NCBI GenBank assembly: GCA_963713215.1
Contig: CAVQKY010000005.1
Location: 823,151 to 887,150, forward strand
Direction: 5' to 3'
DNA from: an uncultured Pseudomonadota bacterium
GTDB taxonomy: Bacteria > Pseudomonadota > Gammaproteobacteria > Steroidobacterales > Woeseiaceae
Length of the DNA stretch: 64,000 nucleotides
Position numbers and translations under genes: made by a program. Positions 4,442 to 29,396 of the stretch are shown here, piece by piece (the first letter of the stretch is position 1; the number at the start of each line of letters is the position of its first letter). The notes beneath the pieces are model-generated. The model ran no database searches and was not told the DNA's origin. It was given only the letters and a program-made list of their open reading frames with translations.

Positions 4442-5371
4442 ATGCTCACGCACGACATCGAAACTCCCCGCGCCAGCCTGCAGGCGCGCATCGTGCGGGC
4501 CGTCACCTCCGTGTGGTTCAGCCTGCTCGATGCCGAACGTGCGAATGTCCAGGCGGCGCGTTTCCGGATCAATGCACTGGGAAAGCTGGTGCCGACGGCC
4601 GCAGGCGTTGTGGTGGAGCCGGCCGAAATTGCCGGGCTCGACGCCGAATGGCTGGTGCCGGCCACGGCCCCCGCGGACCGGTTGATCCTGTACCTGCACG
4701 GCGGCGCGTACGTGCTCGGCGGCTGCGATTCGCATCGGCATATGGTGAGTCACATCGCCCGTGCGGCCGGCGTCCGCGCGTTGGTCCCGGAATACAGCCT
4801 GGCGCCGGAAAACCCGTTTCCCGCAGCGGTCGAGGATGTCGTCGAGGTCTACCGTGCCTTGCTCGGCCAGGGTTATGACGCGCGCAATATCGTCGTCGCG
4901 GGCGATTCCGCCGGGGGCGGGCTGGCCGTCGCGAGTTTGCTCGCCAGCCGGGATGCCGGCCTGCCGATGCCGGCCGGCGCATTCCTCCTGTCGCCCTGGC
5001 TCGATCTGTCGGCGAGCGGCGAGACGATGCGCTCGCGCGACGGCCGCGACCCGTGGTTCCGGCCGGGTGACGTGGCCGTCATTGCCGGCCATTACTGCCG
5101 GAAAGACCAGGTGACCGATCCGTTGGTATCACCGGTTTTCGCCGAACTCGACGAATTTCCACCGACGTTCATCCAGGTCGGTGACGACGAGATCCTGCTG
5201 AGCGATGCCACCCGCCTGGCGAAAAATCTCGAATCCCGCGGTTGCCGCGTCGAGCTCGAGGTTTTTCCGGGCATGTGGCACGTATTCCAGGCCTTCCTGC
5301 TGGTCGTGCCCGAGGCGCGCGCAGCGGTCGAACGCCTGGCAGGCAGCATGCGCGAGATTCTCGAGCCCTAG
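4442..5371 (+). CDS. alpha/beta hydrolase fold-3 esterase/lipase (HSL family)
   Basis: ORF 4391..5371. I prefer ATG 4442 because it avoids overlap with the divergent dehalogenase start. Oxyanion motif LHGGAYVLGG and nucleophile GDSAGG. Confidence 0.8.
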   Translation: MLTHDIETPRASLQARIVRAVTSVWFSLLDAERANVQAARFRINALGKLVPTAAGVVVEPAEIAGLDAEWLVPATAPADRLILYLHGGAYVLGGCDSHRHMVSHIARAAGVRALVPEYSLAPENPFPAAVEDVVEVYRALLGQGYDARNIVVAGDSAGGGLAVASLLASRDAGLPMPAGAFLLSPWLDLSASGETMRSRDGRDPWFRPGDVAVIAGHYCRKDQVTDPLVSPVFAELDEFPPTFIQVGDDEILLSDATRLAKNLESRGCRVELEVFPGMWHVFQAFLLVVPEARAAVERLAGSMREILEP

Positions 5372-6732
5372 ATCGTTTTCTCCGCATCCTCGTGCATGCG
5401 GACGAGAAAACGCCGGATTGCCGCCACGGCCTCGTCGCGAGGCATGAGCTGGCGGGCCTCGAATTCCGCTGCCATATCGTGCAGGGAGCGCTTGCCGTCG
5501 ATCAGCGACATGACGAAGGCGTAAATCCGCGTGCTGACCGCCTGTGCCTGGAAGGCCGCCGTAAGCGGCACCGGCTCGTTGCCCGTCACGAGCCAGTCCG
5601 GCAGGGCGCGGTGGCGCGCCGGACGATCGACCGGGCGTGATTTCCTGGCCGCGAACGTGAACACGGTTTCCAGTCGCCCGTGGCGGCTCGCGGGCGAGTT
5701 CATGTAGGGGATAGTGGTCTCGTCGACTTCCGGCGCATCGAAACCCGCGCCGGCGAGGATGTCGATGACCTCGGGCGGCGCGTAGCGCCGGGCGCGGCCT
5801 GCGGCGGCAAAAGCCAGTGAACCGAAATTCAGCCAGCGGCCCCCCGTTCGCAGCAGCGCGTTGATGCGCGCGCTGAACACCGGCAGGTCTTCGCTGACGA
5901 TATCGATGAGCCACGGGGTAACGACGGTGTCGAACTGTGCAGAGGCAAAGGGCGGACGCAGCGCATCGCCGAGCACGAGGTGCAATCCTTCAGACAGGGG
6001 AGCGGGCGCGGCGAGAGTCCGGAGCACCGCATCATCCGCCGCAGCAAGCGGGGCCAGGGGGAACTCGACCATGTCCAGCGTTTCGCCGGCAAACATGCGC
6101 TCGGCGATCAGTACGAGCAAGGGATTGAAATCGAGCGCGAAGAGCTGCGCGACCTCGAATTCGCGTTTGATGTCATACGCCAGCCGGCCTGCACCGGCGC
6201 CGAGAACGAGCGTCGTGCCGAGGGCTGTGTCGGCACAGAGGACCTTACGCAGCGAACCGATAGAGGCGGCGTTCTCCTCCTCGCCCCAGGCCCAGTCCCG
6301 GTGGACGTTGGCGTAGTAGGTGTTGAGGCCCTGGTCGGATGGCATTCGGGTCCGGAGGGCGAGCCACGTTTCGTAGGAAGTGGCCAGGGACCCGACCCCG
6401 ACCGGCGCCAGCAAGCCGGAGAGCGTGCGACGGTGAAGGTCGAGGTGTTCCCGGTAGCGACGCACGCGCGCGCGGGTGGTTTCACGAAGGTCCCGCTGCA
6501 GAAGTTCAGCATCCAGGGCGTCGAGCTCCCGCCCGATACCCTGCAATGCCGAATGCAGGCGGCCGCGCCACTCCGCGAGGCTCGCGTCCGGCTCGGCGAA
6601 CAGCCAGGGGATGCCGTTGAGGTGCGGAAAATCGACCTTGCAGGCACGACAGCGGAATCCCCTGTCCTGCGCATCGAGCGGCGTTTTGTCGCAGCGCGGG
6701 CAGGCGAGCAGGTCGGACGGTATCGGGCTCAT
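5368..6732 (-). CDS. three-part fusion: Trm112/YcaR-like zinc ribbon + class I SAM methyltransferase + C-terminal PqqD-like domain
   Basis: ORF 5368..6822, start taken at MSPIPSDLL (6732). CPRCDKTPL..FRCRACKVDFPHLNGIPWLF is a CxxC..CxxC ribbon. LVLGAGAGRLAYD is the SAM motif I. The C-terminus IYAFVMSLIDGKRSLHDMAAEFEARQLMPRDEAVAAIRRFLVRM resembles PqqD/RRE domains. Confidence 0.6.
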   Translation of the reverse strand: MSPIPSDLLACPRCDKTPLDAQDRGFRCRACKVDFPHLNGIPWLFAEPDASLAEWRGRLHSALQGIGRELDALDAELLQRDLRETTRARVRRYREHLDLHRRTLSGLLAPVGVGSLATSYETWLALRTRMPSDQGLNTYYANVHRDWAWGEEENAASIGSLRKVLCADTALGTTLVLGAGAGRLAYDIKREFEVAQLFALDFNPLLVLIAERMFAGETLDMVEFPLAPLAAADDAVLRTLAAPAPLSEGLHLVLGDALRPPFASAQFDTVVTPWLIDIVSEDLPVFSARINALLRTGGRWLNFGSLAFAAAGRARRYAPPEVIDILAGAGFDAPEVDETTIPYMNSPASRHGRLETVFTFAARKSRPVDRPARHRALPDWLVTGNEPVPLTAAFQAQAVSTRIYAFVMSLIDGKRSLHDMAAEFEARQLMPRDEAVAAIRRFLVRMHEDAEKTI

Positions 6733-6805: not shown

Positions 6806-8434
6806 CTACACCGGGTTGGCAATCGTACCGTTGCAGATGGGCGTGAAGGCCGTGAGGCTGTCCTGCAGCGCCGCGTTGCCGAGGCCGTGCGCCGGGAAGA
6901 CCTGGCCGAACAAGCCCTGTTCCCCGTGCAGCGCCATGTAGTTCAGCAACACGGTATTGACGAGCAACGGGACGTTGTTGGCGGCGGGTGTCGCCGCGCG
7001 CTGGACTGCGCCGTCCGAGCTCATGTAACCCAACTGCTGATGCTGCGCGATGTCCGCGGGGGTTGCGCCGATGATCGTCGGCCGTCGGCCCGGGTTATAG
7101 ACGAGGAAGAAGGATGCAGCCGTCGACGAGTTGTCGCTGTCCCATTCGCCCTTGCCCCTGCCGTCGACGGTATCGTCGATCGCGCCGTTCGAGGACAGCG
7201 ACCCGTCTGAGAAGACATAGATCATCACGGGCGTGTTGAGCCTCGCGGCGTATTCGAGCACGGCACCCATGCAGCGACCGGCACGGAAGTCCTTGACCTC
7301 ACCTTCCGCACGGCGCCCGCCATGGTAGTCATAGCCGCCCATCTCGATGCAGCCGGCGCCGGCGTAGCCGTTCATGACCAGCTTCATGATCGAAGCCGTC
7401 TTCTGGAACTCGCGCGCATCGGTGTTGTTGGCATTGAATTCAGCGTCGGTGAATATACCGCTCGGGCCGACGATCACCGGGTCGAGGCCCGGATCGATCG
7501 GGACGCCGCCGAAGCGGTCGGCGATGTCGGCCGCTTTCAGGTAACCGCAACGCACCAGTTCCTTGATGACGGCGTCATTGGTCACCTGCGTGTTGACCCG
7601 ATCCATCTTGGCGTCTGTCAGGCGATAGATCGACTCCATGACCGCCGTCGCGTCTTCTTTCGACAGGATACCGACGAGGTCACCCGTATCCACGAGATTC
7701 GTCACGTCGGACGGCCGGTCGACCTTGGTCGGACGAAGTTCGGGATCGTACAAGGACATCGGCAGCATCGAGTTGCCGCCGGAGTCGGTATTCTCCGAGC
7801 CCGCGAGCGTCAGGATGGAGCCGTTGGCGCCAGCGCCGCCCGCACCGGCACGCGCGATGCCATACATCGGGTTGTGCGGGTTGTTGCCGGTGTCGTTATC
7901 GGAGCGGGCCGGAATGACGGCGCCGTTGATGAATGATTCGTTGCCCGGCGTCAGCATCTGCGCGATGCCCCGGCGGAAGGCCGAATCGAGATGAAAGCCG
8001 AGCCCCAGGTCGAAGTTCGCATAAGGCTGGCCGCTGACCGGGTCGTTGAGGCCGGGCACCATGTCGCCGGGCAGGCCTTGGCGCGAGTAGCCGATCGTGG
8101 CCAGGAAGTCCGACTGTCCCCCTTCCTGTCCGATCAGCACGTTCGAACCCGCAATGTTCGCGCCGCCCGCCAGGTCAAAACAGATGAAGGGAATCTTGCC
8201 GGCGCCGTTCGTCGCGATCTGGCAGGGGTTTATGAGCAGCGCGTCGAGGTCCGACGACAATGCCGCATAGGCTTCGCGCGGATTCGAGAACAGGCTCAAT
8301 ATCCCGGCGCTCGTCGCGTAGGCGGCACCCGACATGAAGCCCTGTGCTACGAATTGGCGGCGTGTGACAGGACGCGGATGATCGCTGTGGAACTGTGGCG
8401 CGTCCCAGTCCCGTTTATTTCGTCTCTTGGCCAT
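6806..8434 (-). CDS. Tat-exported protein of unknown function, distantly DUF1501/DUF1552-like
   Basis: ORF 6806..8503. Start at MAKRRNK (8434) has AAGGAAG 7 nt upstream. Twin-arginine signal VTRRQFVAQGFMSGAAYA. Motifs FICFDLAGGANIAGSN, EMGGYDYHGG and YVFSDGSL resemble the GGxDxxN / GGWDTH / SEFGR blocks of DUF1501 as I remember them. Confidence 0.5.
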   Translation of the reverse strand: MAKRRNKRDWDAPQFHSDHPRPVTRRQFVAQGFMSGAAYATSAGILSLFSNPREAYAALSSDLDALLINPCQIATNGAGKIPFICFDLAGGANIAGSNVLIGQEGGQSDFLATIGYSRQGLPGDMVPGLNDPVSGQPYANFDLGLGFHLDSAFRRGIAQMLTPGNESFINGAVIPARSDNDTGNNPHNPMYGIARAGAGGAGANGSILTLAGSENTDSGGNSMLPMSLYDPELRPTKVDRPSDVTNLVDTGDLVGILSKEDATAVMESIYRLTDAKMDRVNTQVTNDAVIKELVRCGYLKAADIADRFGGVPIDPGLDPVIVGPSGIFTDAEFNANNTDAREFQKTASIMKLVMNGYAGAGCIEMGGYDYHGGRRAEGEVKDFRAGRCMGAVLEYAARLNTPVMIYVFSDGSLSSNGAIDDTVDGRGKGEWDSDNSSTAASFFLVYNPGRRPTIIGATPADIAQHQQLGYMSSDGAVQRAATPAANNVPLLVNTVLLNYMALHGEQGLFGQVFPAHGLGNAALQDSLTAFTPICNGTIANPV

Positions 8435-8460
8435 TGCAGTCTTCCTTGATTGTCCTGTCG

Positions 8461-10956
8461 TTACTGAACGAGCGTTACTGCGCTGCCCAGCGTTGCGGCG
8501 CAAACGCCCTTCGCTATGGAACGCGTATTCGAGCCGCCGGCGATCAGGCGATCGATAAGGTCCGCTGGCCGCCCATCCGGCCCGCCGCCGGCATTGTTGG
8601 CAAGTTCCTGGTACACCGTCGCGTACGTAGGCTGGGTGGCGATCTGTGGCCCCGCCGGCGCATTTCCCACTATCTTCGTGATCAGCGGATTAACCAGGAG
8701 GTCGCGACTGGCACCTGCGAATGCCGTGCCCGGTGCGGCATTGAAATTGAAGCCCGGGAAATAGGTGGCCGCCTGCGGGCCATCCACGAGAGCATTGCAG
8801 TACGAGATCGCGAGCTGCGCGATGGCGACCTGGTGCGAGGACAGGAACGTGTTGACGTCCTCGACCGCAGGCAGTGATTGCCGCAGCTCCTGGTATGTCA
8901 TATCGACGTCGACCGAGTCGGGGTCGACGCCCGTGACCTTGGCAAAGGTCGCGTTGATCTCGTCGAACGTGCGTACGCCGATATGTGGTGCAGGCGGCAG
9001 GTCCGACGGCGAGATGACCAGTGTCGGATCGGGCGCGCGGCTGAAGCTCGCACTGCCGAGCCGGTCGAACGTGAGGAAGAACTCGTCGTCCTCCGGTCCT
9101 TTCTCCAGCGGCAGCACGGCGCCGAGCCTCGACAGCGGCTGCCCGAGTTCCTCGAACAATTGCGCGGACAAGGTGCTGTCCAGCGTGGCATAGGTTTGCC
9201 CGACCGGCGCTTCCTTGCCGTTCATTGCCACACGCAGACCCTCGATGTCGATCCCTTCCGGGGTCGAACCGTCGAGCGTCAGGAAATGCGGCCTGTCGAA
9301 CAGGTAGGCATACGTGTCGTACTGCGAGACCTCGAACAGGATGTACGAGGATTGCGGAGCCGCCTGGATGATCTCGGAGATGTCGAACAACAGGTAGAAC
9401 TTTTCACCTACGCCCACGTCGAAATTCTGCAGAACCTGTTCCTGGGTCAGCGCACGGTCGTGCACTGCGACCAGGCGGAGCGTACCCTGCCACAAGCGAT
9501 CGCCGGACGCCTCGTTACCCAGAACGAACGCGAACGTGTCCTGCCAGTCGATGACCGTACCACCCGGCACCGGGTCGACCTGCGTAACGAGTTCGCCGTT
9601 CACGTAAATGCGCCTGCCATCCGTGGGGCTGTAAGTGGCAACGACGTGCTGCAGTGTCGCTTGCAATACTTGGTCCGCGCTCGGCGTCGATAGCGCCGGG
9701 TCGCCGTTCAGGCTCGTTTCAGTCGTCCGCAACAGGAAATTGTAGTCGTACAGGGTCTGTTGCAGCGTGAGGTTGCGGGCTTCCGTGCCCGCTGAATAGC
9801 TCACGATGCGAGCCTCTTCCTGAGCCACATTACCGGGAATTACCCAGGCTTCGACGGAGAATTGTCCGCCCGATTCCTGGATAAAATCGAAAATCTTGCG
9901 GCTCGCGGTCGTCGAGCCCTGGGCCTTGCCGTTATTGATGGTGATGCCCCAGCCGCCGTACCACTCGACGTCCCCCGAGAGGTTGAGATCGAGCGCCGGT
10001 GCGACGCCGCTGGTGTCGTAAGCCACCAGGCCACTGCCGGTCTTGAATTCCCACAGCGCGATCTGGTCGCTCTCGTAGCGATTGCCACCGGAAGCTATCG
10101 TACCGTCGACGAGCCGGAGCGCCTTGCTGGTCACGAGGCTCGGATCGATCGTGGTCAGCGAGATTGCGCCTGCATAGGCCTGGATCGCGGCCAGCATGGT
10201 CGCCGCGTCGTTCGAGCAGCTGTTCGTCCAGCAGTTGTGGAATTCGACGCCAAGGCGCAGGACGAAGCGTGAGTTCGCCGGATCGTCGAGATTCATCTTG
10301 GACTTTGCCGCGTCGTAGGCAACGTTGATGTCGGGATCCGCAAAGTACGGCTGGATGGCATTACCGGATTCCGAACTGTGACACCCGGCGCAATGCTCGG
10401 TCAGCAGACCATGGATACCCGCGAAAGACGGCGGGCCGAACGCGTCGGCCGGATAATTCCGGCTGGCTCCCGGGTCCACAGAACTGGGCGGCAATAGCAC
10501 GATCTCGCGGCCGCCGCCCGCAGCGTCACCAAGCCAGTTCTCGATCCACGTCGTCATGACGGAGGAGCAGACGCTCGGCTCGGAGTTCCAGCAGTTGTGG
10601 CCCTGGCCGACTTTTTCCACCATGCGCGACAAGGAAGGCTGCGACATGTCGGTGACCGTCACTGCCTCGTCGTGTGCCATGTTTATGTCGTCGAAACGGG
10701 CGAACATAGGCGACTGGCCGGTGGTTTCGTTGTGACACCCGCCGCAGGTTGCCTGATTTTGTACCGGTAGCCAGAACTCGGTCAGGAATTTCTGGACGCC
10801 GTCATCACGCGGCGACGCCGCGCCCGAGTATGTGATCGTGTTGTTGCCGGTACCGCCCTGCGGTATCGGCATGTCCTCTGTCTGGGCACCACCGCCGCAG
10901 GCCGAGACGAGCAGGCCAAGAGCGGAAACCAGCAGCACGCTTCTTGCGTTAATCAT
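8461..10956 (-). CDS. lipoprotein with two CXXCH haem c motifs, a LamG-like jelly-roll and an unknown C-terminal region
   Basis: ORF 8461..10956, AGGAGAAGG upstream. Lipobox LLVSAC|GG. CGGCH at nt 10746..10732 and CAGCH at 10392..10378. Central region (WGITINNGKAQG..FSVEAWVIP..RIYVNGELV..LGNEASGDRLWQGTLRLVAVHDRAL) looks like Laminin_G_3. Confidence 0.6.
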   Translation of the reverse strand: MINARSVLLVSALGLLVSACGGGAQTEDMPIPQGGTGNNTITYSGAASPRDDGVQKFLTEFWLPVQNQATCGGCHNETTGQSPMFARFDDINMAHDEAVTVTDMSQPSLSRMVEKVGQGHNCWNSEPSVCSSVMTTWIENWLGDAAGGGREIVLLPPSSVDPGASRNYPADAFGPPSFAGIHGLLTEHCAGCHSSESGNAIQPYFADPDINVAYDAAKSKMNLDDPANSRFVLRLGVEFHNCWTNSCSNDAATMLAAIQAYAGAISLTTIDPSLVTSKALRLVDGTIASGGNRYESDQIALWEFKTGSGLVAYDTSGVAPALDLNLSGDVEWYGGWGITINNGKAQGSTTASRKIFDFIQESGGQFSVEAWVIPGNVAQEEARIVSYSAGTEARNLTLQQTLYDYNFLLRTTETSLNGDPALSTPSADQVLQATLQHVVATYSPTDGRRIYVNGELVTQVDPVPGGTVIDWQDTFAFVLGNEASGDRLWQGTLRLVAVHDRALTQEQVLQNFDVGVGEKFYLLFDISEIIQAAPQSSYILFEVSQYDTYAYLFDRPHFLTLDGSTPEGIDIEGLRVAMNGKEAPVGQTYATLDSTLSAQLFEELGQPLSRLGAVLPLEKGPEDDEFFLTFDRLGSASFSRAPDPTLVISPSDLPPAPHIGVRTFDEINATFAKVTGVDPDSVDVDMTYQELRQSLPAVEDVNTFLSSHQVAIAQLAISYCNALVDGPQAATYFPGFNFNAAPGTAFAGASRDLLVNPLITKIVGNAPAGPQIATQPTYATVYQELANNAGGGPDGRPADLIDRLIAGGSNTRSIAKGVCAATLGSAVTLVQ

Positions 10957-10967
10957 GATCCCTTCTC

Positions 10968-12152
10968 CTACTGGCCCATGCAGTGGACGGCCGAATCGGC
11001 GAACACCTGCTTCATGCGGTAGCCCGAACTACGGAACGTGTCCGTAATCTGATCGACTGCGTCACGGTCTGTCTGGTCTTCCGGGCTGCGCAGGCACACG
11101 GCACGGAACACTTTCCTGACTTGGCACGCGGCGAACGCGTAGCTGTTGGCAAGTTCCTCGCCCATCGTTTTCGCACCATTGCCTTCGCCCGGCAGCGCCG
11201 GATCGAAGCCCAGGTAGGCGTTCTGCCCGCTACGCCAGTAGTTTTCCCAGGAGTCGTCCGTCGTCCGAAAGCCCTGCGGAAAATTCAGGTCGTTGTTGAA
11301 ATATTTCGGCTGCACGTTGCCGGGCGTGTACTCGAGCGCTCCGGTATCGACGTTGTAGTTGTAATACGCGAAGGCGCCCGCCAACGGGTCCATTCCTGTG
11401 TGGCAACCGACGCAGTTATTCAGGAACAGCCGGCTGTCGCCGCCGGGGCTGCGGCTCACATCCTGGCGTATACGGTCGGGCGGCAGCCTCGGATCATGCA
11501 TCTGCTCCATGTCGTTGCACATGTGATTCAAGAGCGTGAAGCGGAACATTGCCCGGTTGGTGCCGGCGACGAAAAACGCCTCGGATGCCGCGCGTGAGGT
11601 CATGACGCCCGCCGTCGCGGTCGACGGCAGGCCATTTATCGAGGATTGGGACGTGCTTACCAGCGCGTCCCGGAGGTTCACATTTTCCGCCTCGAGTTGT
11701 TCGTAGTGGAGATTGTTGCTTGCCGAAGGCGCTGCGCTCACCGCACCCGGCGCCCCGACGTAGGAAAGGTCCGCGGACAGCAATGTATTGAACGGCACGT
11801 CGTCCCGCACCATGCCGATAACGGTGGCGACGTAGTCGTTGAGAGGGACGAATACCGAGCGATCACGGTTCGTCCACGGTGCGGCGAAATTTTTCAGCGT
11901 GACGTTATAGAAGTTCTCGTCGGTCATCGCGATATAAGCCGCACCCTGTGCATCGCTGGCCAGGAGTGAGGACTCCATCTGCGCGAGCACCGCATCGGAC
12001 GGCGGAACGCCCGCGAGCCGATCATGAATACGGCGAGCCTGTTCGCGAGGTCCGGCGACGGCCGGGGTGGCGAGAGCGGCGATCAGTATCGTCGCCAGCG
12101 CGGCACGCGCGAGTTTGATCACACCGGATTGCGTCCTTGTCCATGTCTTCAT
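10968..12152 (-). CDS. secreted single-CXXCH protein, DUF1588/DUF1592 (planctomycete PSD)-like
   Basis: ORF 10968..12164, ATG 12152 (MKTW) preferred. Signal ARAALATILIAALATPAVAG. CVGCH at nt 11414..11400 in the context NNCVGCHTGMDPLAGAFAYYN, like the C..CH..mDP.G block of DUF1588-type proteins. The stop is 11 nt before the next gene. Confidence 0.5.
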   Translation of the reverse strand: MKTWTRTQSGVIKLARAALATILIAALATPAVAGPREQARRIHDRLAGVPPSDAVLAQMESSLLASDAQGAAYIAMTDENFYNVTLKNFAAPWTNRDRSVFVPLNDYVATVIGMVRDDVPFNTLLSADLSYVGAPGAVSAAPSASNNLHYEQLEAENVNLRDALVSTSQSSINGLPSTATAGVMTSRAASEAFFVAGTNRAMFRFTLLNHMCNDMEQMHDPRLPPDRIRQDVSRSPGGDSRLFLNNCVGCHTGMDPLAGAFAYYNYNVDTGALEYTPGNVQPKYFNNDLNFPQGFRTTDDSWENYWRSGQNAYLGFDPALPGEGNGAKTMGEELANSYAFAACQVRKVFRAVCLRSPEDQTDRDAVDQITDTFRSSGYRMKQVFADSAVHCMGQ

Positions 12153-13005
12153 AGCGACTCTCATTACGAAACGTCACGTCTGCCGCGCCACAATCAATCC
12201 CGATAGAACGCGCACAGACAGAAGTATTAACAGCGTGCCTAAACCCGGTATTTTTTGCCGTGATTACACTCACAGTACCGTCACGCCTTCCCGACCTTGC
12301 CGCCGTGTCTGTCTTTTGTGTTTCTTTGACGGCCTGCTCCCGTAAAGCAATAGCTGTGCCAGTCCACGCCCGGCCGCCGCCGGGACCGATTTTCTTCCCG
12401 ACAATCATCGGCTTGCCGCGTCCGCCAAGTCGGAGTCCGAAATCGAGATATGTCAAGCCTTTGTCTCAACAAACACACATCACAATGACGCAAAAAAACT
12501 AAACTATTGATTTGTATACGCTTGACGGATGTCGCGGAAGTCCGACAGCCGCGTCGATACCCGACAATGTATGTCAGACTGCACGTAAGCTACTGGTCGC
12601 ATGCGGATTTCCGCGGGACAAAGTCGCGGCCATCCGCGCGAAATCGGGAAGTGACAGCATGGGAGGAACCCTTTCGCCGGATGCCGCGTGTCAGCGAACG
12701 GGAAGACATCGCAATGGCAATGTCGGATATTTTCGACGATACACGGCGGGCCGCGCGTCTCTTATACTGCACCGGAACCCGAAACCGGCCGGATGCAAAA
12801 TTGCTTTGCGATTTCTCTGGTTACGATGGGGCGACAGGCTTTGTGATCGCGTTAACGGTAGTGTCGGTCGCCAGTGTTCACTATTACGAATTGTTCAAAC
12901 GGCGCTGTGAGCCGCGTACCCGTGTGCAGGAAAGGCCGTGCCCTTCATGACAACGTGGTATGAAAAATGCAGTTGTTTAGCCGTTTGAATTCGAGGGAAG
13001 GTCCC

Positions 13006-15756
13006 ATGAACAGCGAGTCGATTCACACGCACACAGGCATTATGTGCAGGGCGGTGCGAGCCACTCTCCTGTTCTCGTGTGCGTCCGCGATCGTTGCTTG
13101 TGACGGCGCGAACCAGGGCGTGCAGATCGGCGACGGGCAGTCACCGGACCCGGTCGTGGTCGATTTCCCGATCGCTTACATCCGTGTGCCTGTGCCGGTC
13201 GACGACAACGGTGCGTTCGAGCAAATGGACCTGCGTGAGCAGATCACCTTCGATGTCGGCGGGGAGCTGTATGTCAAGCCGCGGGCCTCGACGACGGCGA
13301 CCCCCGTCAACGTGACTGGCGAGATCACAGAAGGCAACGGCGCCGTCCGCGATGTCGAAATCGCCTACGATGGCAGTGCGGTCCTGTTCGCGATGCGCAC
13401 CCCGTTCGATCCTAACCTCGACGACGAAGACCAGGTGACCTGGAACCTGTGGGAATACACCTTCGATGACCGGGCGTTGCGCCGGATCATTGCGTCCGAC
13501 CTGTCAGCCGAGATCGGCCATGACATCATGCCGAAATACCTGCCCGACGGCCGAATCGTTTTCGCCTCGACGCGCCAGACCCGTTCGCAGGCGATTCTCC
13601 TCGACGAGGGCAAGCCGGCCTTCGTCGCCGTCGACGAGAACCGGAACGAGTACGCGTTCAACCTGCATATCATCAACCGGGACGGCACCGGGATCGAACA
13701 AATCACCTTTAATCAGAGTCATGACCTGGACCCGGCCGTGCTGGCCGACGGTACGATCGTGTTCACGCGATGGGACCACGCGGGGCCGAACAACGACCAG
13801 ATGAACCTGTACCGCGTCAACCCGGACGGCTCGGGCCTGGAACTCCTGTACGGGAACGAAAGCCACGACACCGGGACCGGCGGCGAAACGATCCAGTTCA
13901 CGCAGCCGAGGCAGGCGGAAGACGGCCGGATCTTTTCGCTCATCCGGCCGTTCACGAACACGGAGGGCGGTGGCGAGGTCATTTCCATCGACACGCCGCG
14001 ATACGTCGAAAACACACAGCCGCTCGCGGAGAACATCGGTGTGCTGGACGGTCCGGCGCAACAGGACGCCACGGTCAACGAGGTCATTACCGTGCCCGGC
14101 GTGCCCTCGCCGGGAGGACGCTATGCGTCGGTCTACCCGATCCAGGACGGTACGGGCCGGATGCTGGTCAGCTGGGCGCAATGTCGCCTCATCGAAGCGA
14201 ACGTCGATCTCGACCCGGGCACGCCGGAAATCGAACCGGTGATCGTCCCGTGTACCGAAGATCGGCTGGACGACGTCTTCGTCATCGATCCGGACAACAT
14301 CGTGCCGATCCCGGACGGCAGTTTCCTGGTCGCGCCGCCCTTGTACGGCATCTGGATCTACGACCCGCGGGACAAGACGCAGCAGCCGGTCGTACCAGGC
14401 GAAGAAGGCTGGATGTTCACGGAAGTGGTATCCGCGGACCCTCGCCCGACACCCCCGGTCGTGGTCGATGGCATCAACGATTTCGAATTTGATAGCTCGC
14501 TTGGCCAGGACGGCGAAGCGGTCCTGCATATCCGCAGCGTCTATGACTTCAACGGTACGGCGGTGGTCGACATCGAGGCGATGGCCGACCCGACGCTGAC
14601 CCCCGCGGAAAGCCGCCCGGCCCGGTTTCTCCGGGTCGTGAAAGCGGTCTCCCAGCCTGACGACGATTTACTCGATATCGACGACACCGCATTTGGCGTC
14701 ACGACGGCAAACGGCATGAGGGAAATCGTGGGATACACGATGATCGAGCCCGACGGCTCGGTCATGACCAGGATTCCGGCCAACACGGCCCTCATGATCA
14801 GCGTGCTTGACGCCAACGGCAAGCGCGTCACGGCGCGTCACGACAACTGGATTTCGGCCCGGCCCGGACAGGTGATCGAGTGCAGCGGCTGCCATGAACC
14901 GGCCACCGGCTTCTCGCACGGACGCCGCGACGCGTTCGAGTCCGCCTGGGCCGGTGCACCGGTAGCGGGGGTTCCGTTCCCGAATACGAATCCCGCGTTG
15001 TTCGTCGGCGACATCGGCGATACGATGGCTGAAACCCGCGCGAGAATCAGCTGCGCGAACGACGGCTGTGCCTCGATCGAGCCGTCGATGAATATCGAGT
15101 TCACCGATGTCTGGACAGATCCGGCCGTCGCCGTGCCAAGTCCGGACTTCAGTTACCTGTACACGGACCTTGTGACACCCGCCCCGACTATCGTGGCGTG
15201 CCTACAGGACTGGCACGCCGCCTGCCGCACGATCATCAACTACGAAACGCATATTCATCCGCTCTGGAGCCTGCCGCGACTCGTCTTCGACGAGCTGGGC
15301 AATCCGGTACTCGATGTGAATGGGAACCAGGTCAGCGCCAATTGCCTGAACTGTCACACACCGATCGACCCGGCGGACGGCATGACCGTGCGGGTCCCGG
15401 CAGGCCAGCTCGAACTGCAGGACGGGCCGTCCCCGGACGAGCAGCTGCATTTTCACGCCTATCGCGAATTGCTAGTTACTGATAATCTTCAGGAAGTGGT
15501 CAACGGAGCCCTTGTGGATGCGCAGCAGCAGGTTGGCGTCGATGAAGACGGCAACCCGATACTCGACGTGATCCGCATTGCGCCATCCGCCAGTACCGCG
15601 GGGGCAAGCGCGTCCGGCGATTTCTTCGGCCGGTTCGAAGACCCTGACGATTTGCACTACAACATCTTGTCGCCGGCGGAGAGACGCTTAATTGCGGAAT
15701 GGTTGGATGTCGGAGCCCAGTACTACAACAATCCCTTCGACGCCCCAGCCAATTGA
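13006..15756 (+). CDS. lipoprotein with TolB/PD40-like beta-propeller repeats and two C-terminal CXXCH motifs (HzsA-like layout)
   Basis: ORF 12967..15756. ATG 13006 follows GAGGGAAGG. Lipobox SAIVAC|DG. Repeated YDGSAVLFAMR, LPDGRIVFASTR, NRDGTGIEQITF, LADGTIVFTRWDH, NPDGSGLELLYG, AEDGRIFSLIRP. CSGCH at 14881..14895 and CLNCH at 15343..15357. Confidence 0.6.
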   Translation: MNSESIHTHTGIMCRAVRATLLFSCASAIVACDGANQGVQIGDGQSPDPVVVDFPIAYIRVPVPVDDNGAFEQMDLREQITFDVGGELYVKPRASTTATPVNVTGEITEGNGAVRDVEIAYDGSAVLFAMRTPFDPNLDDEDQVTWNLWEYTFDDRALRRIIASDLSAEIGHDIMPKYLPDGRIVFASTRQTRSQAILLDEGKPAFVAVDENRNEYAFNLHIINRDGTGIEQITFNQSHDLDPAVLADGTIVFTRWDHAGPNNDQMNLYRVNPDGSGLELLYGNESHDTGTGGETIQFTQPRQAEDGRIFSLIRPFTNTEGGGEVISIDTPRYVENTQPLAENIGVLDGPAQQDATVNEVITVPGVPSPGGRYASVYPIQDGTGRMLVSWAQCRLIEANVDLDPGTPEIEPVIVPCTEDRLDDVFVIDPDNIVPIPDGSFLVAPPLYGIWIYDPRDKTQQPVVPGEEGWMFTEVVSADPRPTPPVVVDGINDFEFDSSLGQDGEAVLHIRSVYDFNGTAVVDIEAMADPTLTPAESRPARFLRVVKAVSQPDDDLLDIDDTAFGVTTANGMREIVGYTMIEPDGSVMTRIPANTALMISVLDANGKRVTARHDNWISARPGQVIECSGCHEPATGFSHGRRDAFESAWAGAPVAGVPFPNTNPALFVGDIGDTMAETRARISCANDGCASIEPSMNIEFTDVWTDPAVAVPSPDFSYLYTDLVTPAPTIVACLQDWHAACRTIINYETHIHPLWSLPRLVFDELGNPVLDVNGNQVSANCLNCHTPIDPADGMTVRVPAGQLELQDGPSPDEQLHFHAYRELLVTDNLQEVVNGALVDAQQQVGVDEDGNPILDVIRIAPSASTAGASASGDFFGRFEDPDDLHYNILSPAERRLIAEWLDVGAQYYNNPFDAPAN

Positions 15757-16564
15757 GTTTTCGCTGAGCGCGCGGCACATAGCGCGATACGTCGTTGAAA
15801 AGACGAACGAATGGCGCGCGCATGCACGGTCGTTGATTTGTTGCGTCTGCATCATTCTTGCCGCGGCCGGGACGGGTCATGCGGCCGAGGACCCGTTGCG
15901 GCAGGTCGCGGTTGCCGACCCGTATCTCGAGTTGCATACGGGGCCGGGGCGCGGCTACCCGGTTTTTCACGTCGTCGAACGCGGCGAAAGCGTGTCGGTC
16001 GTGTTACAGCGGACGGACTGGTACCTCGTGCGCACGGACCGGGCGATCGAAGGCTGGGTGAATCGCGACCAGATGGAACTGACCCTGACCGACGATGGCG
16101 GGAATTTCGTGGTCGATCGGGCTGCGCTCGAGGATTTCACGAACGCGAAGTGGGAGGTCGGCGTACTGGCGGGTGATTTCGGCGGCGCCAACGTCGTCTC
16201 CCTGTATGGGAGCTATTCGCTGAATCCGCATGTTTCGGTCGAAGCGTGGGGTTCACAGATCCTGGGCAATTTTTCGAACGGCTGGATCGGTAATGTTAAT
16301 CTCGTTCACGAGGCGTTCCCGGACTGGCGCATTTCGCCGTTCTTCACACTGGGGGCGGGCTTCATCCACACGGAACCGAAATCGACCATCGTGCAGGGGG
16401 AGGACCGGACGGACCAGCTCGGGCACGCAGGCGCAGGATTCCGGATCTATGCCACCCGGCGCTTTCTGTTGCGCGCCGAATTCAAGAGCTATGTCGTGTT
16501 CACGAGTCGCGACGACAATGAGGAAGTAGAGGAATGGAAAGTCGGGTTCGCGTACTTTTTCTGA
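15692..16564 (+). CDS. outer-membrane small beta-barrel protein with N-terminal SH3b-like domain
   Basis: ORF 15692..16564. The start is uncertain: ATG 15692 overlaps the upstream gene by 65 nt, and in-frame TTG 15833 is an alternative. Signal-like LICCVCIILAAAGTGHA. PYLELHTGPGRGYPVFHVVERGESVSVVLQRTDWYLVRTDRAIEGWV is SH3b-like. The C-terminus alternates like barrel strands and ends VGFAYFF. Confidence 0.55.
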   Translation: MRNGWMSEPSTTTIPSTPQPIEFSLSARHIARYVVEKTNEWRAHARSLICCVCIILAAAGTGHAAEDPLRQVAVADPYLELHTGPGRGYPVFHVVERGESVSVVLQRTDWYLVRTDRAIEGWVNRDQMELTLTDDGGNFVVDRAALEDFTNAKWEVGVLAGDFGGANVVSLYGSYSLNPHVSVEAWGSQILGNFSNGWIGNVNLVHEAFPDWRISPFFTLGAGFIHTEPKSTIVQGEDRTDQLGHAGAGFRIYATRRFLLRAEFKSYVVFTSRDDNEEVEEWKVGFAYFF

Positions 16565-17214
16565 TCGCCTTCGCGGTCCTCGTGAGCGGATGCGCGGCGA
16601 CCAAGAACCTGTTCGGGATAGGCGACGATGAGACGGCGCCCCCGACAGCGGAGCCGCCGGGCCAGGTGATCAACCCGGAAGTCGAACGCCGGGAGATCGA
16701 GGAGCCCGCGATCGACCGCGAAGACTTCGAACTCGGCGCGTTTGTCGGCGTCATGAGCGTCGAGGATTTCGAGAGCGGCGTCGTGTACGGCGCTCGCCTT
16801 TCCTACCACCTGACCGAGGGTTTTTTCGTCGAAGGCACGATCGGCCAGACGGACGCCGGCAAGACGAGTTTCGAACTCCTGTCGGGCGGCGCGCAACTTA
16901 TTTCCGACAGCGAACGACGTCTTACCTACTACAATCTGAACGTCGGCTACAACATCCTGCCCGGCGAAGTGTTCATCGGGGAAGGGCGGGCGTACAACAC
17001 GAATCTGTACGTCATCGCGGGTCTCGGCTCGACGGAATTCGCGGGTGACGACAGGTTCACGGTAAATTTCGGGGCCGGTTACCGCTTCCTGCTCACGGAC
17101 TCGGTCGCGCTGCACCTCGATTTTCGCGATCACCTGTTCGATATCGACCTGTTCGGCGAGGAGAAGACCGCGCACAATCTCGAGGCGCACCTCGGGGTTA
17201 CGGTGTTCTTCTAG
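16534..17214 (+). CDS. outer-membrane beta-barrel lipoprotein (same barrel type as the preceding gene)
   Basis: ORF 16534..17214. Lipobox VLVSGC|AA, acidic linker, then an alternating-strand barrel ending HLGVTVFF. It overlaps the upstream gene by 31 nt. Confidence 0.6.
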   Translation: MESRVRVLFLIAFAVLVSGCAATKNLFGIGDDETAPPTAEPPGQVINPEVERREIEEPAIDREDFELGAFVGVMSVEDFESGVVYGARLSYHLTEGFFVEGTIGQTDAGKTSFELLSGGAQLISDSERRLTYYNLNVGYNILPGEVFIGEGRAYNTNLYVIAGLGSTEFAGDDRFTVNFGAGYRFLLTDSVALHLDFRDHLFDIDLFGEEKTAHNLEAHLGVTVFF

Positions 17215-17281
17215 GGCCGGAGGGGTTATCTTCTGACGGACTTCACGGTACCCGGCTGCACGCAGGCGATAAAGTGAGGAA

Positions 17282-17527
17282 ATGACAGTGACTATTCGAG
17301 CAATTGGCCGACATTGGCTCAGCGCAGGCCTGGTCGTGCTTCTGGCAGGCTGCGGCGGGGGCATCGAGCCCTGGGTCAAGCCCTATGAGCGCGACCGGCT
17401 GGCCGACCCCATCATGGCGCTCGACGGCGACCCGGTGTCCTCGTCCTACATCCAGCACGTCTATGAAGCACGCGAAGGCGCCCGCGGCGGCGAAGGTGCC
17501 GCAGGCGGCGGCTGTGGCTGCAACTGA
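17282..17527 (+). CDS. DUF4266 family small lipoprotein
   Basis: ORF 17282..17527. Lipobox VLLAGC|GG. The family-typical C-terminal GGGCGCN is present (..AAGGGCGCN). Confidence 0.7.
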   Translation: MTVTIRAIGRHWLSAGLVVLLAGCGGGIEPWVKPYERDRLADPIMALDGDPVSSSYIQHVYEAREGARGGEGAAGGGCGCN

Positions 17528-17534
17528 CGGGCGC

Positions 17535-18659
17535 ATGAACCTGCTTCGCCGGATTCTTTGCCTCGGCAGCCTGTCGGCGCTTGCCGGCAGTGCCGTTGCG
17601 GGCGTCTTGCCCGACGACCGGGGTGACGTGATGTATCACCGGTACGTCGGCGGCGGCGTCGAGATCGACGGCCCGTCCGTGCTCGTGCGCAAGAAAGTGG
17701 GTTCCAGTTTTTCCTTCGTCGGCAACTACTACGTCGACTACGTCAGTTCGGCGTCCATCGACGTCGTCACCCAGGCGAGCCCGTACACGGAGCAGCGCAA
17801 CCAGTGGTCGCTTGGCGTGGATTATCTGCGCGGCAATACCACGATGAGCGCCAACTACACGAGTTCGGAGGAATCCGACTTCGACGCGAAGACCTATGGA
17901 TTCGCAGTCAGCCAGGACATGTTCGGCGACCTGACGACCCTGACACTGAGCTATGCCTACGGCGACGACCTCGTCCGGCGGACCGACGATCCGGCCTTCG
18001 CGGAGCCCAATACACGCCAGGTCTATGGTATCGGCCTGACACAGATCCTCACCCGGGATCTGATCGCGACACTCAATTTCGAGACCGCGACCGACGAGGG
18101 CTTCCTGAACAATCCCTACCGCTCGGTGCGCTACGTCGACCCGACCGCGGACCTGGGCTACAGCTGGGAGCCGGAGCTCTATCCGCGCACCCGCACCAGC
18201 AACGCCCTGGGCCTGCGCGCACGCTATTTCCTGCCGTATCGGGCGGCGGTCGAACTGGAAGTACGGGGTTACACGGACACCTGGGACATCGACGGCCTGA
18301 TGGGGTCGCTCATGTACGTACACCCCTGGGGGCCGTTCACGTTCAGCGCCAAGTATCGATACCATGGACAGAACAGCGCGCATTTTTATAGTGACAATTT
18401 TCCGCGTTCCCAAGCGACGAATTTTCGCGGCCGCGACAAGGAGCTGAGCGAGCTCTACAGCAATACTTACAGTTTCAGGGCGAGTTACCAGTTCGTCGAC
18501 GAGAACCGTGGCTGGAGCTTTGTGAAGAGGGGCTCGGTTACCGCATCGTATGACCGCCTGTCCATCAAGTATCCCGACTTTACGGACCTGATCGCGGGCG
18601 GCGGCGCTTACATCCTAAAGGCAAACGTGTTCCAGCTTTACGTCTCGTTATGGTACTGA
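17535..18659 (+). CDS. DUF3570 family outer-membrane barrel protein
   Basis: In-frame ATG 17535 of ORF 17304..18659, 7 nt after DUF4266. Signal MNLLRRILCLGSLSALAGSAVA. YHRYVGGGVEIDGPSV..NYYVDYVSSASIDV fits my memory of DUF3570. Ends aromatic (YVSLWY). Confidence 0.65.
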   Translation: MNLLRRILCLGSLSALAGSAVAGVLPDDRGDVMYHRYVGGGVEIDGPSVLVRKKVGSSFSFVGNYYVDYVSSASIDVVTQASPYTEQRNQWSLGVDYLRGNTTMSANYTSSEESDFDAKTYGFAVSQDMFGDLTTLTLSYAYGDDLVRRTDDPAFAEPNTRQVYGIGLTQILTRDLIATLNFETATDEGFLNNPYRSVRYVDPTADLGYSWEPELYPRTRTSNALGLRARYFLPYRAAVELEVRGYTDTWDIDGLMGSLMYVHPWGPFTFSAKYRYHGQNSAHFYSDNFPRSQATNFRGRDKELSELYSNTYSFRASYQFVDENRGWSFVKRGSVTASYDRLSIKYPDFTDLIAGGGAYILKANVFQLYVSLWY

Positions 18660-25964: not shown

Positions 25965-27026
25965 ATGACGGACTTGCAGGATCTCGGCTGGCGACCCTGC
26001 TTCGCCGCGCAGGCCGCTGAAGACATGGCCGGCCCGCCGGATGGCGGCCAGCCAGGGCTGGCGCCGGCGCGTGTCATGGCCGTGCATCGCGATCGCATCG
26101 AACTGGACGGCGAAGAAGTCCCGCACAGCGTGCGAGCGCCCGGACCGGTCGCCTCCGGCATTGCGGTCGGCGACTGGGTGATGGTGGACCGTTCAAGCGG
26201 GCGGGTGCGGCGCGTGCTGGAGCGTGCCGGCGTCTTCCGCCGCCGCGCCGCGGGCACGGCAGCCGAAATGCAGTACCTGGCGGCCAATGTGGACACCGTC
26301 TTCATCGTTACCTCAGCCAATCGCGAGTTCAATGCCGCGCGACTCGAGCGCTACCTGGCACTTGCGCACGACGCTGCCGCCTTTCCCGTGGTCGTCATCA
26401 CAAAGGCCGACTGCGTCGAGTCGGCGGACGAATTCATCGACGCGGCGCGGCACCTGGCCCCTGGCCTTGTCGTGGAAGCTCTCGACGCGCGGGATGCGGA
26501 GGCCGTCCGGCGACTCGAGCCATGGGGCGGCACCGGCCAGACGGTCGCACTTCTCGGCTCTTCCGGCGTCGGCAAGTCGACGCTCGTCAACAGCCTGACC
26601 GGCGGCGCGCAGGCGACGCATGCGGCGCGGCAAGCCGACCAGCGCGGCCGCCACACGACGACGGCCCGCTCGATGCACCGGCTGCCGGCCGGCGGCTGGC
26701 TGATCGATACGCCGGGGATGCGCGAGCTGCGACTTGCCGGTGTGGGCGATGCGCTGGAGGGCGTGTTTGCGGAAATCGCCGCGTTCGCGGCGGATTGCCG
26801 CTTCGCCGACTGCCGGCACGAACAGGAGCCGGGCTGCACGGTGCAGGCTGCGATCGCCCGGGGCGAATTAGACCCGCAGCGCCTCGCGCGCTTCCTGAAG
26901 CTCTGCGCCGAGGATCTGCGCAATGCCGCGAGCGTCGCCGAACGGCGCCAGCGCGACCGGGCCCAAGGGCGGCTGTACCGTGCCGTGCAGCACGAACAGC
27001 GGCGAAAAAAGCATGACGAGCATTGA
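25965..27026 (+). CDS. rsgA: ribosome small-subunit-dependent GTPase A
   Basis: ORF 25965..27026. LLGSSGVGKSTLVNSL P-loop, DTPGMRE, zinc knuckle CRFADCRHEQEPGCTV. Confidence 0.85.
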   Translation: MTDLQDLGWRPCFAAQAAEDMAGPPDGGQPGLAPARVMAVHRDRIELDGEEVPHSVRAPGPVASGIAVGDWVMVDRSSGRVRRVLERAGVFRRRAAGTAAEMQYLAANVDTVFIVTSANREFNAARLERYLALAHDAAAFPVVVITKADCVESADEFIDAARHLAPGLVVEALDARDAEAVRRLEPWGGTGQTVALLGSSGVGKSTLVNSLTGGAQATHAARQADQRGRHTTTARSMHRLPAGGWLIDTPGMRELRLAGVGDALEGVFAEIAAFAADCRFADCRHEQEPGCTVQAAIARGELDPQRLARFLKLCAEDLRNAASVAERRQRDRAQGRLYRAVQHEQRRKKHDEH

Positions 27027-27783
27027 TCTCAATGCGGACGTCGGCGAAGGGGAGCCGGCCGAGGACGCACTGCTCGACATCGTGTCGAGTTGCAGCATCG
27101 CCTGCGGCGGGCACGCGGGCGACGCGACGAGCATGGCGCGGACGATTGCGGCCGCACGTCTGCGCGGCGTGACGACAGGCGCGCACCCGTCGTATCCCGA
27201 CCGCGCCGGCTTCGGCCGCCGGAGCGGTTTTCTCGCCGGTGAACGGCTCTTTGACGCGCTGACGCACCAGGTACGCGAATTCGCGCGCATTGCGGCGGAC
27301 GCCGGTGTACGGACGGCGCACGTCAAGCTGCACGGCGCCCTGTATAACGAGGCCGCGCGCGATCGCGAGCTCGCCGGCATTGCCGCGCGCGTGGTGGCGG
27401 CGTTGCCCGGCGACGCCGCGCTCGTCGGCCCGCCGGATAGCGAGCTCGCATCCGCCGCCCGGCACCTCGGTGTGCGCTTTCTCGCCGAAGGCTTCGTCGA
27501 CCGTCGTTACCGCCCGGACGGAACGCTGGTGCCGCGCAGCGAAGCGGGGGCCGTACTGGAAACAGTGAGCGACGCAGTGGCCCAGGCGCTGTCGCTGGCC
27601 CGGGAGCACCGTGTCATGGCGCAAGACGGTTCTCGCATCGTGTTGCGTGCCGACACGCTTTGCATCCACGGGGACACGCCGGGCGCGGCAGAGACCGCGG
27701 CGGCGATCCGCAGAGCGCTCGTGGCGGCCGGCGTACGTATCGCGCCTCCGGCATCGATCGCCGGGGCGCGTGTCGATGCCTGA
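27013..27783 (+). CDS. pxpA: 5-oxoprolinase subunit A (LamB/YcsF)
   Basis: In-frame ATG 27013 of ORF 26923..27783. MTSIDLNADVGEG..SIACGGHAGD..GAHPSYPD. Confidence 0.85.
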   Translation: MTSIDLNADVGEGEPAEDALLDIVSSCSIACGGHAGDATSMARTIAAARLRGVTTGAHPSYPDRAGFGRRSGFLAGERLFDALTHQVREFARIAADAGVRTAHVKLHGALYNEAARDRELAGIAARVVAALPGDAALVGPPDSELASAARHLGVRFLAEGFVDRRYRPDGTLVPRSEAGAVLETVSDAVAQALSLAREHRVMAQDGSRIVLRADTLCIHGDTPGAAETAAAIRRALVAAGVRIAPPASIAGARVDA

Positions 27784-29361: not shown

Positions 29362-29396
29362 GGAGGCGACTTCGCCTCGCACGGCGCGTTCGCGTA

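Follow-up and report, generated by a model that had tools for sequence, protein, structure and literature searches.

PSCyt and PSD proteins and their DUF1501 and DUF1552 partners are among the most expanded protein families of the Planctomycetes and Verrucomicrobia, and they have remained without a function since they were described in 2004 (PMC5615132; PMC3542564). The PSCyt/PSD genes adjoin genes of the DUF1501 family or of a second unassigned family, and some of their products contain a Laminin_G_3 domain; no function has been established for these associations (PMC5615132; PMC3542564). Here we compare such modules with three co-directional open reading frames (ORFs), named A394, B831 and C542, on the minus strand of a 64,000-nucleotide stretch of DNA from an uncultured bacterium of the family Woeseiaceae (contig CAVQKY010000005.1). 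The whole stretch is called the window below, and the three ORFs, the trio, occupy its positions 6806-12152 (Table 1). The Woeseiaceae are a major group of marine-sediment bacteria. An initial annotation, made from the sequence alone, had described the trio as a divergent, split, gammaproteobacterial version of the pairing between haem-motif PSD/DUF1588-like proteins and a DUF1501/DUF1552-like partner exported by twin-arginine translocation (Tat). The three ORFs, their lengths, their signal types and the motifs that it quoted are all present on re-translation, by which the feature coordinates given here were verified, and the CxxCH, twin-arginine and DxH motifs are invariant in the homologues.

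The canonical pairing from which that proposal started is documented in the papers cited above and can be seen in real loci. Four of the six DUF1552 genes that we looked up have a gene for a protein of 770-795 amino acids (aa) with the architecture PSD3-CBM60-PSD5-PSD4-PSCyt3-PSD2 directly upstream; a fifth has such a gene one small gene off, and the sixth has none within 5 kb. In the other type of module, exemplified by a real locus, a DUF1501 gene is followed by the gene for a PSCyt2-PSD1 protein. The DUF1501 and DUF1552 references used below are real database proteins with Pfam labels (30 of them in the DUF1501 set), which were fetched with bait sequences approximating typical members of the two families.

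We give a slightly better than even chance to the reading that the trio is the conserved core of an extracytoplasmic module, which is a distant and repartitioned relative of the modules of PSD/PSCyt proteins and Tat-exported partners. The partner families would then number three: DUF1501, DUF1552 and that of C542. The central idea of the initial annotation holds for the haem proteins; for the Tat partner it is unproven. A search of the literature turned up no paper on the trio cluster or on DUF1585, nor any on genes resembling hydrazine synthase in Woeseia, Alteromonas or Microbulbifer.

The predicted haem proteins A394 and B831

A394 and B831 are predicted to be c-type haem proteins, with haem attachment read from their CxxCH motifs. 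Generic cytochrome c models of Pfam match both proteins weakly; the CxxCH motifs and the export signals are invariant. The conservation of each protein was assessed in 18 homologues of 47-82% identity, and profile comparisons by hhalign were judged against ten controls, in which unrelated or reversed profiles scored 14-24 with P values of 0.08-0.6.

The profile of the A394 family aligned with five canonical PSD proteins over 225 columns with a score of 46.7 and a P value of 4.8e-5. The alignment pairs A394 aa 85-384 with canonical residues 480-747, running from the end of PSD4 through the CxxCH-x-MDP motif into PSD2, and it covers the PSCyt3 region, where the CVGCH of A394 falls on the canonical CAxCHxRMDPLGF of PSCyt3. 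Pfam finds PSD2 (PF07624) close to its cut-off of 25.8 bits: the whole protein scores 24.5 bits, just under it, and the isolated C-terminal 159 aa score 26.3 bits (E 6.3e-6), a borderline pass. PSD2 was matched in 16 of the 18 homologues (Pfam, E<=0.1), the Microbulbifer orthologue is named 'DUF1585 domain-containing protein' in RefSeq, and a distant A394-like protein (locus L092, see below) bears a precomputed PSD2 label. The N-terminal half of A394 has no significant match in Pfam or in the canonical PSD profile.

B831 is a lipoprotein in which a haem module of about 120 residues, which contains CxxCH and ends with an invariant HNCW, occurs twice. The LamG-like core ascribed to this protein was confirmed, since Laminin_G_3 (PF13385) is matched with 76.7 bits and an E value of 2.8e-21, and in all 18 homologues; RefSeq calls the Microbulbifer orthologue 'LamG domain-containing protein'. 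Module 2 (aa 166-324) aligned with the region of the canonical proteins that contains the N-terminal haem motif and the start of PSD3 (canonical residues 22-149) with an hhalign score of 50.4 and a P value of 4.4e-5, and its motif is in register with the canonical F..V.P.L..C..CH. Module 1 resembles the PSCyt2 region of a DUF1501-linked protein weakly (hhalign P 0.0035). The isolated haem modules have no significant Pfam match, the C-terminal domain has no detectable counterpart in the canonical PSD proteins (P 0.077), and the remainder of B831 has no match in Pfam or in the canonical PSD profile.

Because their scores far exceed those of the control comparisons, we consider the matches of A394 and B831 to canonical PSD proteins to be real, if remote. 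A394 is accordingly a remote homologue of the part of the DUF1592-type proteins that comprises the end of PSD4, PSCyt3 and PSD2.

The Tat-exported protein C542

Tat export of C542 is predicted from its signal, in which TRRQFVAQGF, a hydrophobic stretch and AYA correspond to the Tat pattern of S/T-R-R-x-F-L, hydrophobic stretch and cleavage site. Among 63 relatives of 28-55% identity, the twin arginine, G90-G91, D181, G367, D369, H371, D410-G411 and D434 are invariant, and position 87 is Asp or Glu in 62. The n-region of the signal (residues 1-23; 8366-8434, minus strand) is conserved as well, with the pattern H-x-x-P-x-T-R-R and a His six residues ahead of the twin arginine in 63 of 63 proteins. 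Signal peptides are not usually so conserved, which suggests that a dedicated partner binds this one.

The family of C542 is large and has neither a Pfam nor an NCBIfam model. In a collection clustered at 90% identity, 7996 of 8000 scored candidates belong to it at E 1e-3, so that it comprises at least about 8000 such clusters; a collection at 50% identity yielded 1313 representative clusters, and the number of species-level genomes with a member is at least 593.

The AlphaFold model of C542 has a mean predicted local distance difference test score (pLDDT) of 86.9 and a predicted template modelling score (pTM) of 0.85. The initial annotation had suggested a comparison with alkaline phosphatase and sulfatase folds. 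In a Foldseek search of the PDB, the 50 best matches come without exception from the alkaline phosphatase superfamily and represent six of its families (Escherichia coli alkaline phosphatase, TAB5 alkaline phosphatase, MCR-1/2, ICR, steroid sulfatase and choline sulfatase), although each match taken singly is insignificant, with a best E value of 0.013, a probability of at most 0.72 and a template modelling (TM) score of about 0.2. The invariant acidic and His residues of C542 lie directly past predicted strands, and in the alkaline phosphatase/sulfatase superfamily Asp and His residues at strand ends are metal ligands. By this analogy, D/E87, D181-T/S182, D369-x-H371, D410 and D434 would be candidates for metal ligands or the active site, and D181-T182, which recalls the Asp-Ser of alkaline phosphatase, might supply the nucleophile. 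Unlike the sulfatases, C542 lacks a CxPxR motif, and it has no sequence-level match to any solved structure. At most, C542 can tentatively be called a very divergent member of the alkaline phosphatase fold.

Conservation of the partnership

We compared the loci of the 80 closest relatives of C542, which are mostly from Woeseiaceae, with others from Alteromonas, Glaciecola, Aliiglaciecola, Microbulbifer and Azotimanducaceae. Their C542 proteins are 64-88% identical, so the loci are kin and the counts are not independent; the denominators given here and below are the close loci with enough flanking DNA for the gene concerned. Upstream of C542, B831 was found in all 68 eligible loci and A394 in all 62. 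C542 is the most conserved of the set, the corresponding range for B831 being 46-84%.

Four distant relatives of C542 (29-32% identity; loci L089-L092) were also examined. In all four the gene order is A394-like gene, small lipoprotein, C542-like gene, haem-module lipoprotein, and a fifth distant place, for which gene sizes were compared in place of DNA, has the same pattern. The A394-like genes were found with E values of 1e-99 to 1e-121. The small lipoproteins (215-279 aa) correspond to the C-terminal domain of B831 (B831 profile columns ~635-815; hmmsearch E 1e-17 to 5e-29), and the haem lipoproteins (379-1375 aa) contain one to three haem modules of the B831 type. Since these loci carry the parts of B831 as two genes that flank the C542-like gene, the core, as read from these gene arrangements, is one of four components, and B831 arose by fusion of two of them, or else a fission produced the distant versions.

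Thus, the co-occurrence of the three genes, which had been put forward as a check, is seen in every informative close locus and in the four distant ones. The label 'gammaproteobacterial' proved too narrow, as the relatives of about 30% identity reside in loci of 39-46% G+C (three of the four were measured). As to the hope for a tractable lineage, the module is present in culturable strains of Alteromonas, Aliiglaciecola and Microbulbifer. The trio is not alone in this, since some culturable proteobacteria also contain canonical DUF1552/DUF1592 pairs.

Comparison with the canonical modules

The closest counterpart is the DUF1592/DUF1552 module (PF07586, HXXSHH). A394 aligns with about the last 270 residues of the DUF1592-type protein, including CxxCH-x-MDP and PSD2; the haem module of B831 resembles its N-terminal haem region, with a lectin-type insert next in both; the gene for a Tat-exported partner belongs to the same operon; and a function has not been established for either system. 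However, what is a single polypeptide there (PSD3-PSD5-PSD4-PSCyt3-PSD2) is distributed over two or three proteins here, and the genes are ordered differently. In the trio, PSD3, PSD5 and the greater part of PSD4 escape detection, neither A394 nor B831 having a Pfam match to PSD3, PSD5 or PSD4. The haem module of B831 is doubled, LamG stands in place of CBM60, and C542 is not a DUF1552 protein, its structural similarity to sulfatases being much weaker. The description of the trio as a split version oversimplifies: the gene for A394, which resembles the C-terminal part, comes before that for B831, and the C-terminal domain of B831 is without a detectable canonical counterpart.

The modules of PSCyt1/PSCyt2/PSD1 proteins with DUF1501 (PF07394) share the optional Laminin_G_3 domain reported for them (PMC3542564), the weak likeness between B831 module 1 and the PSCyt2 region, and an alignment of C542 with DUF1501 in which GGYDYH is in register with WDWHG and YVFSDG with VVWGEFG. 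They differ in that no homologue of the trio proteins has a Pfam match to PSCyt1, PSCyt2, PSD1 or DUF1501.

As a single-copy, pared-down relative of the canonical pairs with its components encoded by separate genes, and one that occurs also in Woeseiaceae, the module could be a convenient object for study.

Neighboring genes

The trio had been treated as a unit of three genes. In this clade the conserved unit is larger and includes a divergent operon and a methyltransferase gene. The divergent operon (12967-18659, plus strand) consists of four genes and is syntenic in the close loci. Its first gene encodes D929, a lipoprotein that matches the Pfam model HZS_alpha (PF18582) with an E value of 1.2e-15 and also PD40. 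Against the alpha subunit of hydrazine synthase (PDB 5c2v_A) it gave an E value of 3.1e-9 in four collinear stretches that include the haem alpha-I motif; propeller, middle haem domain with CSGCH and C-terminal segment occur in the same order as in 5C2V chain A. No function is known for homologues of this subunit from organisms other than anammox bacteria (PMC12758564). D929 is such a homologue and was rejected as a true hydrazine synthase: it scores 63 bits against the 800 bits of the NCBIfam equivalog, and no beta or gamma subunit homologue was recognized. Its hosts include aerobic marine heterotrophs. The genes for the two following barrels, F290 and G226, are syntenic in 58/58 and 53/53 close loci.

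The last gene of the operon encodes a barrel of the DUF3570 family, which has been shown experimentally to be a substrate for flavinylation by ApbE (PMC8238504). In the window the first flavinylation motif of this protein is degenerate (SSAS for SGAS), and it contains no [ST]GA[ST]; the same motif is absent from A394, B831, C542 and D929, and no ApbE gene was found in the 64 kb. SSAS or TSAS is present in 44 of the 49 loci in which the motif region was found, the 44 being Woeseiaceae loci, the window included. SGAS is kept in Alteromonas, Microbulbifer and Aliiglaciecola (loci L066, L076, L077, L079 and L080), and also in L075, and an ApbE gene adjoins C542 in four loci (L066, L072, L076 and L077; two Alteromonas, one Glaciecola and one Microbulbifer). 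Flavinylation may thus have been lost or replaced in the Woeseiaceae that have SSAS or TSAS. The DUF3570/ApbE clusters of Meheust et al. (2021) are similar in the barrel itself, in the SGAS of Alteromonas and Microbulbifer and in the four ApbE genes; they are different in their DsbD, thioredoxin-like and DUF4266 partners, none of which is among the genes examined near the module, as well as in the window's SSAS motif and lack of ApbE.

In 61 of 69 loci the gene that follows C542 directly encodes a cytoplasmic S-adenosylmethionine (SAM) methyltransferase. This accessory gene of the module is missing from the six loci of Alteromonas, Glaciecola, Aliiglaciecola and Microbulbifer; the distant module L090 has a homologue of 25% identity beside it. 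Among 16 homologues, Pfam matched CARME in 16 (best E 1.6e-13), PqqD in 8 and Trm112p in 4. It might be speculated that this enzyme modifies C542 before export. Class I SAM methyltransferase genes also adjoin DUF1552 in two of the six canonical loci (L085, 6767-7822; L087, 4019-4687 and 6740-7405), which may be a coincidence or an echo of the methyltransferase association at the trio.

The 814-nucleotide (nt) intergenic region between the trio and the divergent operon shows no coding-type conservation, and only a 19-nt element in it is conserved. Each of 47 Woeseiaceae loci has a single copy of this putative promoter or operator, in intergenic DNA that has otherwise diverged, and the window contains one occurrence against 0.01 expected. 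With a conserved CGT about 18 nt past its AAC, the element resembles a promoter of the extracytoplasmic function (ECF) sigma type. A riboswitch or other RNA was considered for this region and rejected, as there is no Rfam match in it.

Table 1. Positions of the trio, of its motifs and domains, and of the neighboring features in the window
Feature	Positions	Strand	Remarks
A394	10968-12152	-	Sec-type signal ending AVA/GP; single haem motif CVGCH
A394 segment NNCVGCHTGMDPLAGAFAYYN	11358-11420	-	Contains CVGCH
A394 CVGCH, haem c attachment motif	11400-11414	-	Sits in NNCVGCHTGMDP; invariant in 18/18 homologues
A394 PSD2 (DUF1585)-like domain, aa 325-383	11004-11180	-	Pfam PF07624
B831	8461-10956	-	Lipoprotein: two haem modules, LamG, middle region, C-terminal domain
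B831 lipobox LVSAC	10897-10911	-	Lipid-anchor Cys20 invariant in 18/18 homologues
B831 CGGCH, haem motif of module 1	10732-10746	-	Invariant 18/18; paired with invariant H120-N-C-W
B831 CAGCH, haem motif of module 2	10378-10392	-	Invariant 18/18; paired with H240-N-(C)-W
B831 LamG (Laminin_G_3, concanavalin-like lectin), aa 363-508	9433-9870	-	Pfam PF13385
B831 C-terminal domain, aa ~650-831	8464-9009	-	Separate small lipoprotein in distant lineages
C542	6806-8434	-	Tat-exported (predicted) alpha/beta protein, putative metal site
C542 twin-arginine motif TRRQFV	8348-8365	-	R25, R26 and H19 invariant 63/63
C542 block FICFDLAGGANIAG	8147-8188	-	Quoted in the initial annotation
C542 D181-T182	7889-7894	-	D181 63/63; T or S 57/63; candidate nucleophile
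C542 GGYDYH	7322-7339	-	Putative metal ligands D369 and H371 just past a beta strand
C542 YVFSDGSL	7196-7219	-	Quoted in the initial annotation
C542 S-D-G	7202-7210	-	Putative ligand D410 just past a beta strand; D410 and G411 invariant
E484/E454, cytoplasmic methyltransferase	5368-6732	-	Trm112-like zinc ribbon, CARNMT-like SAM methyltransferase, PqqD-like C-terminal domain (Pfam)
19-nt element TGTGATCGCGTTAACGGTA	12842-12860	+	Putative promoter/operator, ~105 nt 5' of the D929 ORF
D929, hydrazine-synthase-alpha-like lipoprotein	12967-15756	+	Beta-propeller; divergent from A394; syntenic 59/59
D929 CxxCH motifs (two)	14881-14895 and 15343-15357	+	Dihaem prediction
F290 (SH3, porin-like) and G226 (lipobox), outer-membrane beta-barrels	15692-17214	+	Pfam OMP_b-brl, SH3_3
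H, DUF3570-family barrel	17535-18659	+	Pfam DUF3570, E 1.1e-24

Possible function and alternative explanations

If the trio is indeed a relative of the PSD/PSCyt modules, we would picture it as follows, the function of the module being predicted from sequence throughout. A394 would be a periplasmic mono-haem c protein and B831 a membrane-anchored lipoprotein, and C542, folded in the cytoplasm and exported by Tat, would likely be the catalytic, metal-dependent subunit with a residue arrangement like that of alkaline phosphatase. The proteins would assemble at the envelope, where a polymer resembling a glycan would be held as substrate by the lectin domain of B831 and acted on at the metal site of C542, and the haems would pass electrons to or from the reaction. 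In the gammaproteobacterial clade the module would be coupled to D929 and three outer-membrane barrels, one of them of the flavinylatable DUF3570 family, and this coupling suggests an envelope electron path. In a bolder version, which we hold to be improbable, C542 is a metalloenzyme of a new alkaline-phosphatase-like branch working with PSD-type haem proteins in a widespread and hitherto unrecognized envelope enzyme system; the CARNMT-like enzyme, of the histidine-N-methyltransferase type, would modify C542 before export, its PqqD-like domain docking on the His-containing n-region, and the gammaproteobacterial lineages would have wired the system to D929 and DUF3570. The links to the hydrazine-synthase-alpha-like protein, the flavinylatable barrel and the CARNMT-like methyltransferase are concrete hypotheses that can be tested. 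If the bolder version were true, its solution would also account for the PSCyt/PSD-DUF1501/DUF1552 pairs, of which Planctomycetes and Verrucomicrobia have hundreds.

Several results weigh against kinship with the canonical modules. In A394 the PSCyt3 model (DUF1588, PF07627) reaches 12-13 bits against a cut-off of 27, a motif-level match that is confined to profile positions 69-89 (CxxCH...DP) and seen in 6 of the 18 homologues at E<=0.1; of the PSD/DUF1588-like character ascribed to the haem proteins, the PSD part is thus upheld by the two profile alignments and the borderline PSD2 match, and the PSCyt3 part stays below its cut-off. B831 has no Pfam match to PSCyt1, PSCyt2 or PSD in the 18 homologues, and PSCyt1, PSCyt2 and PSD1 (PF07635, PF07583 and PF07587) are not matched even at E<=10 by these or by the isolated haem modules. 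C542, its 63 relatives and their profile have no sequence match in Pfam, NCBIfam or the PDB, and neither DUF1501 (PF07394) nor DUF1552 (PF07586) is found in any of the 63 at E<=0.1. By hhalign, C542 against DUF1501 gave a P value of 0.016 and a probability of 2.8%, barely above the null range, and against DUF1552 a P value of 0.037-0.047, with or without secondary structure, with the Tat signal alone aligned; adding the AlphaFold-derived secondary structure to the profile brought no improvement. Searches with hidden Markov models in both directions between C542 and DUF1501 gave at most 3.5 bits, the same as shuffled sequences. C542 also lacks the HxxSHH of DUF1552 and has GGYDYHGG at the equivalent position. 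A DUF1552 control model, although poorer (pLDDT 74), matched sulfatases, LtaS and YejM with E values down to 9e-6 and TM scores of about 0.4. C542 is therefore not a detectable member of either family, contrary to what had been proposed. Because its structural matches are singly insignificant and those of the control are better, the alkaline phosphatase fold is tentative and homology to the canonical Tat partners unproven. On the genomic side, the syntenic loci are close relatives and the distant sample amounts to just 4-5 loci, and none of the four distant loci has the hydrazine-synthase-alpha-like operon within 8 kb of the module. Finally, the substrate, the metal and the direction of electron flow proposed above are all our extrapolation.

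These results could mean that the haem proteins are derived from PSD proteins and that C542 is unrelated to the canonical partners and was recruited independently into a distinct system, its likeness to DUF1501 and DUF1552 being convergent or at the level of the superfamily. We regard this as possible, though clearly less probable than kinship. No sequence or profile comparison of C542 with DUF1501 or DUF1552 rises clearly above the null, Foldseek gives weak matches for C542 and clear ones for the DUF1552 control, and C542 is some 90-100 residues longer than the members of either family. However, in the same set-up DUF1501 against DUF1552 itself gave only a P value of 0.0034, so the test has little power. 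The logic of the partnership is also the same, with the gene for a PSD2-type haem protein beside that for a Tat-exported partner; the top 50 structural matches all fall into one superfamily; and a low-stringency alignment with DUF1552 and the alignment with DUF1501 show collinear elements (strand, helical hairpin, strand-DxH, helix, strand-acidic motif). A further explanation, which we find unlikely, is that the cluster is mainly an envelope electron conduit of five c-type haems (in A394, B831 and D929), a flavinylated DUF3570 and porin-like barrels, with D929 as its catalytic end and C542 in an accessory or maturation role. The strict synteny of the divergent operon in the clade, the proven flavinylation of DUF3570 (PMC8238504), the ApbE genes adjacent in four loci and the collinearity of D929 with the hydrazine synthase subunit through the haem alpha-I motif would all fit. 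Because it is absent within 8 kb of all four distant modules, however, the operon is an add-on rather than the core. Moreover, one or two haems per cytochrome are too few for a multihaem wire, most loci, among them the window with no ApbE found in it, carry a degenerate flavinylation motif, and no other protein of the set is as conserved as C542. Lastly, several GenBank records of metagenome-assembled genomes label members of the C542 family 'general secretion pathway protein GspF'. We give this identity practically no credence and reject it: beyond the name in some sources nothing speaks for it, neither C542 nor any of its 63 relatives matches T2SSF or another Pfam or NCBIfam model, the Tat signal and the globular alpha/beta model are not those of a polytopic membrane protein, RefSeq calls the orthologues 'hypothetical protein', and the conserved neighborhood contains no secretion genes. 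The label is probably a propagated mis-annotation.

Other features of the window

A single tRNA gene (38531-38604, minus strand) is the sole Rfam match in the window at the gathering threshold. The G+C content rises to 0.71 at positions 26001-30000, against 0.59-0.69 in the rest of the window.

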